NCBI GenBank assembly: GCA_020846435.1
Contig: JADLDY010000039.1
Span: 16,919 to 80,918 of the forward strand
Reading direction: 5' to 3'
Source: Deltaproteobacteria bacterium
Lineage (GTDB): Bacteria; Desulfobacterota; GWC2-55-46
DNA length: 64,000 nt
In this document: one piece after another, positions 41,906 to 43,287 of the stretch
Layout of the letters: every line of letters begins with the position of its first letter
Numbering within the stretch: the stretch's first letter is position 1
Program-made: the position numbers and the translations under genes
The notes under the pieces: model-generated
What the model saw: only the letters and a program-made list of their open reading frames with translations
What the model was told of the DNA's origin: nothing
Database searches by the model: none

Positions 41906-42214
41906 TCAGCAGCAGCCGGAAGTTTTATCATCTCCATCGGAACAGCCGCATGAAGCGTCCCCCGTGACCATGCCCTTTATAAGGGCCGCCGCGCACCCTA
42001 CCCCGCTTTGCACGATTATCGCGCCGAACGCGCAGTTTTTCATGCACGCTCCGCACTCCATGCAAAGGTCACGGTCTGTTATCCTCGCCTTTTTGCCTTC
42101 CATCTCAAAGACGCCGTGTGGGCAAACTTGAGTGCACATCCTGCATCCCGTGCATTTTGAATGGTCATACTCGAGCGTGCTTACATTAGAAAGGTATCTC
42201 ATGACAAACCCCAC
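41906..42214 (-). CDS. hgcB: Mercury-methylation ferredoxin HgcB
   Basis: Two [4Fe-4S] motifs CTGCRMCTQVCP and CMECGACMKNC plus C-terminal …SGCC pair. Overlaps hgcA 3' end by 16 nt. Confidence 0.85.
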   Translation of the reverse strand: MGFVMRYLSNVSTLEYDHSKCTGCRMCTQVCPHGVFEMEGKKARITDRDLCMECGACMKNCAFGAIIVQSGVGCAAALIKGMVTGDASCGCSDGDDKTSGCC

Positions 42215-43287
42215 TCCGTTATCTTGAAGGCGACTAAAAGAGCAAACGATATGACCGTACCTGCGATGTAGACAGGTATCGAATAGCGCAGCTCCCTTTT
42301 CACGCCGGAGATGCCGGTATAGACGGTAGAACCTGTAAACTGGAGCGCCACATAGGAGCTCGCGAGCGGAAAGAAGATGTACTTCGCCATATCGAGATAT
42401 ATGCTGGACGGCCCGTCAAGGAACAGGCCGGAGACGAATACAGTAACAAACCCGACCAGCCAGCCCTTCAGAGCGAATGACCTGAAAGGCACCCACGGCA
42501 GCAGGAGCGGCGTAAGGAAAGCGCCCGCTATTACCGACAGCGCGCCAAGAATCACCAGAGGGAAACCGTAGACCGCCGCCCCATTCCACGAGATGCCTGA
42601 GGGGGAGAGGCCGGCAGCAACGAGCGCAATCAACGCGAATATGACAAGACCCTTCATTGCCGGACGCAGTTCCATAGGCGTAAGGACGACCCTGTCGACA
42701 ATATCAAAGCCGACCTTTCTCATCGAGGGCGTTGCCTTATACCCGGCGCTGATAAAGCTCTTCAAGTCAGAGGCCTTGACCGGGCCGTATATCACGCGGA
42801 AACCTGTCTGCCTTTTGACCTCATGCGCCGCGACCCCCGGCCCTCCCAGCTGCGGGAGTATGAGACGCCTGTGAGAGACCATGCCAAACAGCTGCGTGGC
42901 AAAGATTCTTTTTACGAGCTCTTCGGTTCCGAAAGTACCCTTGCCAGCCGCGCACCAGACATTTATGCCCTTTGTGTCGAGGACGAGTATCCACGCGTCG
43001 AGGCCTGCAAGCGCGGCCCTGAGCTTGTTGAAGCTCAAGCCGTAATTGGCCGTCACAAAGACATCTGAATCCTTCCCCGGGTTGCCGAGGGCGTACAGGC
43101 CCGGCTTTACCAGATATTTTGTCCTGTATGAGCCGACCCTGCAACGCAGGTGCGCGAAGGTATCCTTCCAGGCAAGGACAGAGTCTGTCCTCAGCGGCCC
43201 GGCCTCAGCCTTTGGCGGGCAGCATTCGGTTTTCGCCTGAGAGCCTTCGCAGCAGCCGCCTGAGGCTTCTTTCGGTCTTGTCTTCAT
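42199..43287 (-). CDS. hgcA: Mercury-methylation corrinoid protein HgcA
   Basis: Diagnostic cap-helix motif GINVWCAAGKGTFG in a CFeSP-like cobalamin-binding domain followed by ~5 TM helices. Start at M28 of the ORF (MKTRPKEASGGCCEG…), overlapping the upstream gene stop (ATGA). Confidence 0.88.
   Translation of the reverse strand: MKTRPKEASGGCCEGSQAKTECCPPKAEAGPLRTDSVLAWKDTFAHLRCRVGSYRTKYLVKPGLYALGNPGKDSDVFVTANYGLSFNKLRAALAGLDAWILVLDTKGINVWCAAGKGTFGTEELVKRIFATQLFGMVSHRRLILPQLGGPGVAAHEVKRQTGFRVIYGPVKASDLKSFISAGYKATPSMRKVGFDIVDRVVLTPMELRPAMKGLVIFALIALVAAGLSPSGISWNGAAVYGFPLVILGALSVIAGAFLTPLLLPWVPFRSFALKGWLVGFVTVFVSGLFLDGPSSIYLDMAKYIFFPLASSYVALQFTGSTVYTGISGVKRELRYSIPVYIAGTVISFALLVAFKITEWGLS

Follow-up and report, generated by a model that had tools for sequence, protein, structure and literature searches.

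We are confident that the 64,000-nucleotide stretch of DNA analysed here (the window), which belongs to a MAG of an uncultured 'Deltaproteobacteria bacterium', carries an intact minus-strand three-gene operon, hgcC-hgcA-hgcB (43556..41906), in a housekeeping region of the chromosome, that its host is a predicted methylator and that HgcC can be proposed as the autorepressor of the operon. In the HgcA and HgcB proteins of the window, all the sequence features by which the mercury-methylation pair is defined are present. Since no genetic determinant of microbial methylmercury formation other than hgcAB is known, the locus adds an uncultured deltaproteobacterial lineage to the predicted methylators. 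In GenBank the two proteins are labelled 'acetyl-CoA synthase subunit gamma' and '4Fe-4S binding protein', and surveys based on names would therefore miss this predicted methylator. The original prediction had described a pair of genes, hgcA and hgcB; both stand, and to them is added a third gene that it had missed, hgcC (43556..43284), predicted to be co-translated with them. The pair itself is of a known kind; the point of interest is the link between HgcC and the arsenite methyltransferase gene arsM.

The HgcA and HgcB proteins

The hgcA gene (42199..43287, minus strand, ATG at 43287; GenBank MCC6503098.1) encodes a 362-aa corrinoid protein that scores 395.2 bits against the NCBIfam model NF040863 (HgcA_corrinoid; cutoff 275), with residues 33-354 lying on profile positions 3-322 of 325. 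A longer ORF of 389 aa, starting from ATG 43368, would overlap hgcC by 85 nt; it was dropped for ATG 43287, which follows a GAGGGA Shine-Dalgarno sequence at a distance of 8 nt and agrees with GenBank and with the homologues. The HgcAB-like fusion paralogue described by NF043039 (cutoff 285) was rejected as well: HgcA reaches 190.1 bits and HgcB 61.1 bits, and two separate genes encode them.

The protein begins with a Cys-rich disordered tail (residues 1-30; 43198..43287, minus strand), in which CC pairs at 12-13 and 22-23 are followed by PP and the pLDDT of the AlphaFold2 model is below 50. Of 17 aligned homologues, 14 have at least one N-terminal CC pair and 11 have at least two. Residues 58-181 form a corrinoid-binding domain of 124 residues (42745..43116, minus strand). 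The likeness of this domain to CFeSP, noticed already in the original prediction, is borne out by the match to PF03599 at 1.2e-11, the sole Pfam family found, by phmmer alignments to PDB chains 2H9A and 4C1N (E about 1e-13) and by Foldseek superpositions on 2ycl, 2h9a and 4djd (rmsd 2.5-2.8 over about 128 columns). The cap-helix motif claimed for this ORF is found as GINVWCAAGKGTFG at residues 107-120 (42928..42969, minus strand), and its cysteine is C112 (codon 42952..42954), in the local order N109-V-W-C112-A-A-G-K116. The block LVLDTxGINVWCAAGK is without variation among 17 HgcA homologues. The cap-helix cysteine, whose absence from an alignment would have spoken against HgcA, is present, and C112 falls exactly on Thr374 of Carboxydothermus hydrogenoformans CFeSP (2H9A). 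The cap-helix cysteine in N(V/I)WCA(A/G)GK is strictly conserved, and its counterpart in Pseudodesulfovibrio mercurii (Desulfovibrio desulfuricans) ND132, Cys93, is needed for HgcA activity (PMC7305189).

The multi-helix membrane domain also foreseen for HgcA (42214..42681, minus strand) consists of five helices in the AlphaFold2 prediction (203-226, 234-261, 271-289, 296-318 and 326-358); Kyte-Doolittle hydropathy gives four strong hydrophobic segments, the fourth AlphaFold2 helix being less hydrophobic. The top fold match of the HgcA model is the integrative ND132 HgcA model 9a0b_A, with 40% identity over 331 columns and a TM score of 0.63-0.68.

The hgcB gene (41906..42202, minus strand; GenBank MCC6503097.1) encodes a 98-aa 2x[4Fe-4S] ferredoxin, in agreement with what had been claimed for the ORF downstream of hgcA. 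It scores 121.6 bits against NF040864 (cutoff 99), with residues 2-98 on profile positions 1-93 of 93, and the profile search proposed for the pair thus identifies both members. Its cluster motifs are CTGCRMCTQVCP (C17, C20, C23 and C27, then P) and CMECGACMKNC (C47, C50, C53 and C57, then A). The residue after motif 2 is E in 27, A in 22 and P in 14 of 77 homologues, and CMECGAC is found in 63/78. C70, located 13 residues past C57, is equivalent to Cys73 of ND132, and a cysteine 10-15 residues past motif 2 is present in 77/77 HgcB homologues. The C-terminus reads SGCC (C97-C98); the terminal cysteine pair, whose loss had been named as an argument against HgcB, is kept here, and two cysteines stand within the last six residues in 70 of the 76 complete homologues.

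The start of hgcB is most likely ATG 42202. The upstream alternative, GTG 42214 (ORF 41906..42214), underlay the 16-nt overlap with hgcA given in the original prediction, which is replaced here by a 4-nt ATGA overlap. ATG 42202 is favoured because the NF040864 alignment begins at residue 2 of the ATG-start protein, because the GenBank protein MCC6503097.1 also has 98 aa, and because the -4 overlap between hgcA and hgcB recurs in 57/78 homologous loci.

Operon organization, promoter and regulator

As read from the sequence, the stop codon of hgcC and the start codon of hgcA share ATGA, as do the stop of hgcA and the start of hgcB, and the translation of hgcC, hgcA and hgcB may be coupled through these two overlaps. 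The hgcB gene lies directly 3' of hgcA in essentially all of 80 related genome loci; three of the 80 are without an hgcB match, and in at least two of these the contig stops within hgcA or shortly after it.

Transcription of hgcCAB would run from an extended -10 promoter (43605..43597) to a hairpin at 41893..41862. This hairpin is a bidirectional intrinsic terminator (41862..41893, both strands) common to hgcB and the convergent alaS, with a 14-bp GC-rich stem and U-runs on either strand. Its folding energies on the two strands are -31.8 and -27.3 kcal/mol (z -6.8 and -6.1), and 0/200 shuffles fold as well. Terminators had been claimed on both sides of the genes, which holds firmly for this downstream hairpin and less well for the upstream site. 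The latter (43760..43799, minus strand), located 5' of hgcC and after the TPR gene, comprises two short hairpins and then U7 and fits the terminator consensus; because its fold is no better than that of shuffles (z +0.45), it is only plausible as a terminator and 5' boundary of the hgcCAB unit.

The chromosomal context is a housekeeping one, as had been stated, with mreBC, PBP2, rodA, recA, recX and alaS on one side and TPR, bamD, two cheW genes, cheA, ahcY, metK and ptsI on the other. A genomic island or a recent transfer finds no backing in the window: GC content is unremarkable throughout, there are no tRNAs and no Rfam elements, a cobalamin riboswitch or other RNA leader included, and no mobile-element genes occur among the annotated ORFs. 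In the GTDB representative set, no genome has an HgcA above 70% identity to that of the window.

The putative extended -10 element of hgcCAB, TGgTATAAT (43597..43605, minus strand), was read directly from the DNA. The -35 is weak in the window genome, and because it has fewer than 4/6 matches the promoter is absent from the list of the consensus scan; related loci have a -35 of TTGACA and a -10 of TATAAT, placed alike relative to an array of pentamers. In the window this operator-like array, TCTGA-ttat-TCAGA-caat-ACTGA (43574..43596, minus strand), comprises three pentamers in a 9-bp phase and comes after the -10 box and ahead of the Shine-Dalgarno sequence of hgcC. It is the sole array of at least 13/15 in the 64-kb window, as well as the window's only strict TCWGAN4TCWGA site. 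Arrays of at least 13/15 precede hgcC in 24/27 genome loci, compared with 3/2885 background windows, and in 75/79 metagenome loci, and the strict motif is found 5' of hgcA in 0/53 loci that are without hgcC. The array 5' of hgcC is kept across loci of Deltaproteobacteria, Nitrospirota and Spirochaetota. This conservation of a phased TCWGA array indirectly supports sequence-specific DNA binding, and probably regulation, by HgcC.

The hgcC gene (43284..43556, minus strand; GenBank MCC6503099.1) encodes a 90-aa protein of AbrB/SpoVT/MazE fold, which passes the NCBIfam model NF040962 with 108.4 bits (cutoff 70), TIGR01439 AbrB with 31.2 bits (cutoff 28.3) and Pfam PF04014 (MazE_antitoxin) with 29.4 bits against 24.7 (7.7e-07). 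Its matches are to AbrB-type families only, with none to the ArsR winged helix of PF01022, and it carries the looped-hinge-helix motif VDxRGQxVLPKELR. The AlphaFold2 monomer is of moderate confidence (pLDDT 71.8). Its top Foldseek matches are SpoVT (2W1T), AbrB-N (1YFB and 1Z0R), Sso7c4 (2L66) and a MazE-DNA complex (2MRU), with probabilities of 0.8-1.0 but weak E-values. In addition to an N-terminal CC (C9, C10), HgcC has the conserved cysteines Cys20, Cys64 and Cys65; among 36 homologues C64 and C65 never vary, and C20 is kept in at least 90%. Genomes with hgcC include bacterial MAGs from several phyla.

From these features we infer that HgcC is a three-cysteine autorepressor responsive to thiophilic metal(loid)s. 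HgcC, as a DNA-binding oligomer of AbrB/SpoVT fold, would bind the TCWGA array (43596..43574); the array covers the predicted transcription start, and bound HgcC would repress its own operon. Repression would be lifted when C20, C64 and C65 take up a thiophilic metal(loid), which would be As(III), Hg(II) or both. Redox or Fe-S sensing by the three cysteines would fit equally well.

HgcC, arsM and competing readings of the locus

Array-bearing genes of the HgcC family are found 2-32 nt 5' of bona fide arsM in 49 of the best 80 HgcC-anchored metagenome loci, and hgcA is the downstream partner in 20 of these 80; the 80 are the best of at least 559 matches, and the partner counts are not a census. 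Where downstream sequence is available, hgcA or arsM follows in 70/74 metagenome loci, and one metagenome HgcC locus runs on into an SBF/Acr3-type permease. The members found ahead of arsM include ones that pass NF040962, such as L086 with 120.6 bits. Our tentative suggestion, to which we give rather less than even weight, is that HgcC represents an uncharacterised kind of metal(loid) sensor, and that its Cys-site AbrB/SpoVT repressor and TCWGA operator form a portable cassette placed before hgcAB or arsM, sometimes together with an Acr3-type permease. In the literature on hgcC, and on AbrB with arsM, we found no published description of the TCWGA operator, the cysteine triad or the coupling of hgcC to arsM. 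If the suggestion is true, mercury-methylation genes in many lineages share a thiophilic-metalloid methylation response with arsenite methylation, and the link between arsenic and hgcAB seen with ArsR in ND132 gains independent backing from an unrelated regulator.

How hgcAB expression is controlled and what the native role of hgcAB is are the larger questions of the field. The locus gives a handle on both, namely a Cys-bearing AbrB-type regulator whose gene is predicted to be coupled to hgcA, and a 23-bp candidate operator, which together precede arsenite methyltransferase genes elsewhere. Regulation of hgcAB by thiophilic metal(loid)s thereby becomes a testable hypothesis, including in lineages without the studied ArsR-type regulator.

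The mechanism known from the literature assigns a part to each conserved residue. The corrinoid of HgcA is held Cys-on by the cap-helix cysteine (C112 in the window), is methylated by S-adenosylmethionine and passes the methyl group to thiolate-held Hg(II); the two [4Fe-4S] clusters of HgcB re-reduce the cobalt, and the HgcB cysteine corresponding to window Cys70 and the C-terminal CC handle Hg(II) and CH3Hg+ (PMC7305189, PMC11588087). In the window proteins, C112 of HgcA would ligate the corrinoid Cys-on and the methyl group from S-adenosylmethionine would pass to Hg(II), while the clusters of HgcB would re-reduce cobalt, and Cys70 and the C-terminal CC would handle Hg(II) and CH3Hg+. This mechanism, taken with the defining features of both proteins, makes the source organism a predicted methylmercury producer on the basis of its genotype.

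The genes may be true hgcAB orthologues whose native role is a metal(loid)- or arsenic-related methyl transfer or detoxification, with Hg methylation as a side reaction. Such a role bears on what the genes do natively and does not conflict with the predicted methylation. We consider it rather unlikely, although several observations point towards it. The HgcC family and its operator are common to arsM operons and are more frequent there in our sample (best 80 of at least 559). The ND132 hgcAB genes are controlled by an arsenic- and SAH-responsive regulator of ArsR type, which is unrelated to HgcC, and knocking out hgcAB made ND132 more sensitive to As(V) relative to the wild type. Moreover, hgcAB is flanked by ars genes in many MAGs. 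However, a common regulator is no proof of a common substrate, the annotated ORFs of the window include no ars genes, there is no second operator array in the window, and no HgcAB substrate beyond Hg(II) is demonstrated in PMC7305189 and PMC11588087.

It is also conceivable that the intact operon is effectively silent or non-functional and that the host is no methylmercury producer in situ; constitutive repression, a missing corrinoid or reductant partner, or an oxygen-exposed lifestyle could be the cause. The natural level of HgcAB is very low, about 0.0004% of protein (PMC11588087), the hgcAB transcript level is reported in the literature to predict methylation rate poorly, and a predicted repressor-type operator lies over the start site in the promoter. 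Nevertheless, we regard silence as improbable. No catalytic residue is lost and no gene is frameshifted; an independent ENA assembly has HgcA at 100% identity and the 11.4 kb that flank it at 99.0%, which argues for purifying selection. To our knowledge, nearly all hgcAB-positive isolates tested so far methylate Hg.

For hgcC, automated KEGG, COG and IMG annotation suggests a PrlF/MazE-type antitoxin. That it belongs to a type II toxin-antitoxin module merely adjoining hgcAB is very improbable, in spite of the PF04014 'MazE_antitoxin' match, the name 'antitoxin PrlF' given by IMG to some members, and Zhang et al. 2023, who describe hgcC as a 'TA-like prlF/mazE/abrB gene' that is TA-associated. 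With no toxin partner this identity was ruled out: no toxin ORF adjoins hgcC in the window, where only the promoter region and the TPR gene lie upstream, hgcC overlaps hgcA directly, what follows the gene in conserved fashion is hgcA or arsM rather than a toxin gene, and the dedicated NCBIfam HgcC model is passed. The conserved cysteine triad, which as far as we know MazE and PrlF lack, also counts against an antitoxin.

That the 362-aa protein is instead a Wood-Ljungdahl CFeSP subunit (AcsC/CdhE) and the ferredoxin a generic electron carrier, as the GenBank name shared by MCC6503098.1 and many homologues, the sole Pfam match and the alignment of residues 58-181 with CFeSP chains might suggest, is next to impossible, being ruled out by the NCBIfam cutoffs (the HgcA equivalog cutoff is exceeded by 120 bits, whereas the AcsC model NF003195, a best match to which would have spoken against HgcA, gives 66.9 bits against 306 and matches just profile positions 323-445 of 450), by the domain architecture, by the Cys in place of Thr374 and by the lack of acs/cdh genes among the annotated ORFs of the window.

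Comparison with known systems

The mercury-methylation operon of the window resembles that of ND132 in architecture, with five TM helices behind the corrinoid domain and, encoded next, a dicluster ferredoxin whose tail carries Cys. The two share NVWCAAGK as identical cap-helix sequence, window Cys112 corresponding to Cys93, and in HgcB C70 corresponds to Cys73 and C97/C98 to Cys94/Cys95. The window HgcA differs in being only about 40% identical in the structure-based match and in the two CC pairs of its N-terminal tail, and the window HgcB in two extra cysteines, C85 and C87. With CFeSP, HgcA shares the Rossmann-like corrinoid-binding domain with cap helix (residues 58-181); it is without the N-terminal [4Fe-4S] and the TIM-barrel domains of CFeSP, and has instead the five-helix membrane domain and a Cys for Thr374.

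A further difference from ND132 lies upstream, where the window has the AbrB-fold HgcC and ND132 an ArsR-like protein. Both systems have a small regulator gene immediately 5' of hgcAB, with co-transcription in ND132 for ArsR2 and predicted co-transcription for hgcC, and the presumed ligand chemistry is cysteine-based in both. The arsenic link of ArsR2 is experimental, whereas HgcC is linked to arsenic through the genomic association of its family with arsM and an Acr3-type permease. Moreover, ArsR2 has the winged helix of ArsR/SmtB and HgcC the swapped hairpin of AbrB/SpoVT, and the likeness between them is probably functional only.

As a member of the HgcC family NF040962, the window protein passes the family model, is encoded directly 5' of hgcA with an ATGA overlap, and has the family's Cys triad and phased TCWGA operator. 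The family is coupled to arsM at least as often as to hgcAB among the best 80 of at least 559 matches. In the view of Zhang et al. 2023 hgcC is mainly archaeal, whereas here it is found in bacterial MAGs of several phyla.

Within the AbrB/SpoVT/MazE/MraZ superfamily, HgcC has the common fold and looped-hinge-helix motif. MraZ binds short direct repeats of fixed phase that overlap its own promoter. HgcC differs from the superfamily in its Cys triad, its C-terminal helix, a repeat unit of its own (TCWGA in a 9-bp phase) and its dedication to metal(loid)-methylation operons.

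HgcA, HgcB and layout of the hgcCAB unit

The mercury-methylation pair hgcA-hgcB named in the original prediction was borne out, and it belongs to a minus-strand unit of three genes, since hgcC (43556..43284, minus, 90 aa), which had been missed, precedes hgcA (43287..42199, minus, 362 aa) and hgcB (42202..41906, minus, 98 aa from ATG). In profile searches, both proteins exceeded their NCBIfam cutoffs, HgcA with 395.2 bits for the equivalog NF040863 (cutoff 275) and HgcB with 121.6 bits for NF040864 (cutoff 99), and Pfam returned only PF03599 and Fer4 families for the two. [quoted passage not shown]

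Solved CFeSP large subunits (2H9A, 4C1N, 4DJD) match HgcA at residues 58-181 only. In this alignment the query 'vwCaagkg' lies over CFeSP 'vlT(374)awaag', and hence HgcA has a Cys in place of CFeSP Thr374. The block L-V-L-D-T-x-G-I-N-V-W-C-A-A-G-K does not vary among 17 aligned homologues (54-83% identity) and has the expected cap-helix Cys at position 112. In the AlphaFold2 model (pLDDT 74), five long helices within residues 203-358 come after an alpha/beta domain, in agreement with the predicted corrinoid and multi-helix membrane domains, and hydropathy gives four strong hydrophobic segments. The top PDB match of this model was 9a0b_A, a deposited integrative model of HgcAB from Pseudodesulfovibrio mercurii ND132 (40% identity over 331 columns, TM 0.63-0.68, E 4e-20); CFeSP chains covered the corrinoid domain alone.

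HgcB was correctly described as a 2x[4Fe-4S] ferredoxin with terminal CC; its cysteines are C17/20/23/27-P, C47/50/53/57, C70, C85, C87 and the terminal C97-C98. Its homologues contain CMECGAC, CIECGAC or CLECGAC in 76/78 cases, a Cys 10-15 residues past motif 2 in 77/77, and two Cys within the last six residues in 70/76. These HgcA and HgcB features are those defined as essential, namely HgcA Cys93, HgcB Cys73 and Cys94/95, and five TM helices (PMC7305189; PMC11588087). According to the same sources, the cap-helix Cys is the ligand of the HgcA corrinoid, which S-adenosylmethionine methylates to methylcob(III)alamin before the methyl group is passed to Hg(II); low-potential electrons come from the HgcB clusters, and a role in handling Hg(II) and CH3Hg+ has been proposed for Cys73 with the C-terminal Cys pair. 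Judged by sequence, HgcA and HgcB of the window depart nowhere from this published scheme, and their activity is predicted.

HgcA begins with a disordered tail, residues 1-30 (43198..43287), in which CC occurs twice (GGCCEGSQAKTECCPP). Of 17 aligned homologues, 14 have one or more CC pairs in this tail and 11 have two or more, and we found no discussion of the tail in the searched passages of the HgcAB structure paper PMC7305189. Flexible tails with vicinal dithiols are present on all three proteins, at the N-termini of HgcA and HgcC (CC) and at the C-terminus of HgcB.

Both gene junctions read ATGA, giving a 4-nt stop/start overlap each. The 16-nt overlap proposed previously corresponds to an alternative GTG of hgcB at 42214 (102-aa ORF). 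ATG 42202 is favoured instead, because the NCBIfam profile alignment begins at residue 2 of the ATG-start protein, the GenBank product is likewise 98 aa, and the distance between hgcA stop and hgcB start is -4 in 57/78 related loci. Shine-Dalgarno sequences are GAGGGA, 8 nt 5' of the hgcA ATG, and GGAG, 7 nt 5' of the hgcC ATG.

Terminators had been proposed on both sides of the pair. Downstream, between hgcB and the convergent alaS, a bidirectional hairpin on both strands (41862..41893; 14-bp GC-rich stem, U-runs on each strand) folds with -31.8 and -27.3 kcal/mol (z -6.8 and -6.1), so this part stands. Upstream, the terminator-like site that follows the TPR gene agrees with the consensus, its stability is not above that of shuffled sequence (z +0.45), and it precedes hgcC rather than hgcA. 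Between this site and hgcC a predicted extended -10 element, TGgTATAAT (43605..43597, minus), follows a weak -35. The original prediction is correct in all but three points: the hgcB start, the overlooked hgcC, and the upstream terminator, which is weak.

Genomic setting and public records

One flank of the unit contains proBA, obg, murJ, holA, leuS, proS, mreBC, PBP2, rodA, recA, recX and alaS, and the other the TPR gene, bamD, cheW, cheW, cheA, ahcY, metK, ptsI, PTS genes, rapZ, hprK, rpoN and lptB. The housekeeping context described before thus holds, and neither a GC anomaly nor a tRNA or Rfam element was found in the window. A 310-aa ORF (10100..11032, minus, TTG start) had no Pfam family at E <= 1e-5 and is kept as a putative gene.

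HgcB, HgcA and HgcC are identical to the consecutive GenBank proteins MCC6503097-99 of the MAG 'Deltaproteobacteria bacterium', to which an identical copy of the neighbouring AlaRS also belongs. The three are labelled '4Fe-4S binding protein' (MCC6503097.1), 'acetyl-CoA synthase subunit gamma' and 'AbrB/MazE/SpoVT family DNA-binding domain-containing protein' (MCC6503099.1), and the label 'acetyl-CoA synthase' is also found on many close HgcA homologues. Because of these labels, the predicted methylator would be missed by name-based surveys; hgcAB as a kind is already known, and this locus is mis-annotated in the public record.

No HgcA more than 70% identical was found among GTDB species representatives, and an identical HgcA is encoded on a 381-kb contig of ENA ERZ25039527 (contig_33255, L001). 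This contig, from an independent assembly, is 99.0% identical to the window on the hgc side (41906..53283) and only 96.0% on the alaS side (32341..41843), and the hgcB-alaS intergenic region (41844..41905; ~196 nt in L001) is unalignable between the assemblies. In L001, alaS and cheA are fragmented (2-3 ORFs), and hgcC carries a frameshift in its N-terminal part. These differences look like long-read indel errors; recombination between strains, with a breakpoint at the terminator, may also have contributed. A separate 1.6-kb contig (L004, CAJPFZ010000289.1, 'Burkholderiaceae bacterium isolate BURC') carries hgcC and hgcA 88% and 70% identical to those of the window; its locus is almost identical to that of 'uncultured bacterium BACT1' (L002), which the same project produced, and the contig was probably mis-binned and does not come from an hgcAB-bearing Burkholderiaceae genome.

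HgcC and its candidate operator

HgcC scored 108.4 bits for NCBIfam NF040962, 'HgcAB-associated protein HgcC' (cutoff 70), and also passed the AbrB domain model and Pfam PF04014. Its AlphaFold2 model (pLDDT 72, core >84) matched SpoVT, AbrB-N, Sso7c4, C68 and the MazE-DNA complex as top PDB entries. In 36 homologues, C64 and C65 never vary, C20 is kept in at least 90%, and an N-terminal CC is frequent. In 80 hgcA-anchored loci from GTDB genomes, hgcB directly follows hgcA in essentially all, and hgcC lies 5' of hgcA in 27, including MAGs of Deltaproteobacteria/Thermodesulfobacteriota, Nitrospirota and Spirochaetota. Such a gene was called a 'conserved putative regulator' in 112 genomes by McDaniel et al. 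2020 and a 'TA-like prlF/mazE/abrB gene', thought mainly archaeal, by Zhang et al. 2023. In the literature we found no paper naming hgcC, defining its binding site or tying the gene to arsM.

Directly after the -10 box, three pentamers in 9-bp phase, TCTGA-ttat-TCAGA-caat-ACTGA (43596..43574, minus), form a candidate operator. Alignment showed this array to be common to hgcC upstream regions of other loci, mostly interleaved with a TTGACA-N17-TATAAT promoter. The strict form TCWGAN4TCWGA was present within -250..+60 of hgcC in 17/28 hgcC-bearing loci and 5' of hgcA in 0/53 loci lacking hgcC, and 21 of the 24 strict sites in 519 kb fall inside these hgcC windows. With a relaxed motif the counts were 26/26 and 5/52, the latter being about the chance rate. 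A three-pentamer score of >=13/15 was reached by 24/27 hgcC upstream regions vs 3/2885 windows of 260 nt drawn at random from those loci. Within the 64-kb window, 43574..43596 is the sole array at this score and also the sole strict site (chance expectation 0.27). Its position over the -10 box and presumed start site would suggest repression by promoter occlusion. In the MAG contig JACRCH010000081.1 (L019, ~2240..2392), a promoter-operator segment of ~77 bp (TTGACA…TATAAT-CAGAATATTCTGATTAGGAG) is tandemly duplicated, leaving two candidate operator copies 5' of hgcC.

Partners of the HgcC family and comparison with ND132

Divergent members of the HgcC family occur in three kinds of neighbourhood, one being the classic hgcC-hgcA-hgcB. 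In a Candidatus Glassbacteria MAG, the family gene lies 1 nt 5' of an arsenite methyltransferase gene (NF008823, 368 bits, cutoff 263), and here too the pentamer array is present upstream. Contigs of JGI metagenomes, scanned with HgcC as the anchor, gave at least 559 matches. Among the best 80, the gene directly 3' of hgcC was arsM-like in 49 loci (one more had arsM two genes on) and hgcA in 19 (one more had hgcA broken by the contig end); 4 loci had a small Cys/His-rich ORF and then a DsrE-like gene, and in 6 the contig ended. All nine arsM genes tested were above the curated cutoff (350-378 bits vs 263), hgcC-arsM gaps were 2-32 nt, and one such operon runs on into an SBF/Acr3-type permease. 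The array scored >=13/15 in 75/79 loci from these best 80 of at least 559.

The Cys triad is kept in 43-44/44 hgcA-linked and 47-50/50 arsM-linked members. In sequence these classes have barely diverged, mean HgcC identity being 0.70 and 0.67 within them and 0.66 between them; the nearest neighbour has the same partner gene in 90/94 cases. In the four loci with the DsrE-like gene (L137, L146, L147, L149), the family gene has the TCWGA array, yet neither hgcA nor arsM comes after it. There, the next ORF is 112-138 aa, His/Cys-rich (…HHHNSIIVHRDCPICKF…) and without Pfam or NCBIfam match, followed by a DsrE/DsrF-like protein (PF13686, 2.8e-39), as at 679..1095 and 977..1567 of L147. They may represent a third set of genes under HgcC control. 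By its neighbourhoods, HgcC is not specific to hgcAB.

The third neighbourhood of the divergent members is that of a locus (L084, GCA_040960625.1, JBFOMW010000658.1, 3473..3775) which has, 3' of the HgcC-family gene, a 43-aa ORF ending ...ALGCYP-TGA and then an in-frame 56-aa ORF, which we take to be AhpD-like. A methyltransferase selenoprotein model was the only family match, and a faint one (E 6e-4). This looks like an AhpD-like selenocysteine (CxxU) protein split by the gene caller at an in-frame TGA.

As an AbrB-fold protein, HgcC would bind DNA at the phased repeat that covers the hgcC promoter, and it would serve specifically operons for the methylation or export of thiophilic metal(loid)s. 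Because of this fold and repeat, three conserved thiols and metal(loid)-operon partners, it would most simply be a metal(loid)-responsive autorepressor. Classical three-thiolate ligand sets bind As(III) in ArsR and Hg(II) in MerR. The three cysteines could alternatively be a redox sensor or the ligands of an Fe-S cluster. The HgcC regulator, a defined candidate operator and coupling of the HgcC family to arsM are what the present analysis adds; with them, how hgcAB is regulated and what its native function is, a long-standing question, can be approached by experiment.

SAM is the reported methyl donor of HgcAB (PMC11588087), and the window has genes for SAH hydrolase (ahcY, 48737..49996) and SAM synthetase (metK, 50094..51263) 5-8 kb 5' of hgcCAB, on the minus strand like the unit itself. 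Between them and the unit are cheA-cheW-cheW, bamD and the TPR gene, and this closeness may be coincidence. In experiments on ND132, hgcAB is co-transcribed with the gene of an ArsR-type regulator whose effectors are arsenic and SAH; this regulator parallels the proposed autorepressor HgcC, although the two proteins are unrelated.
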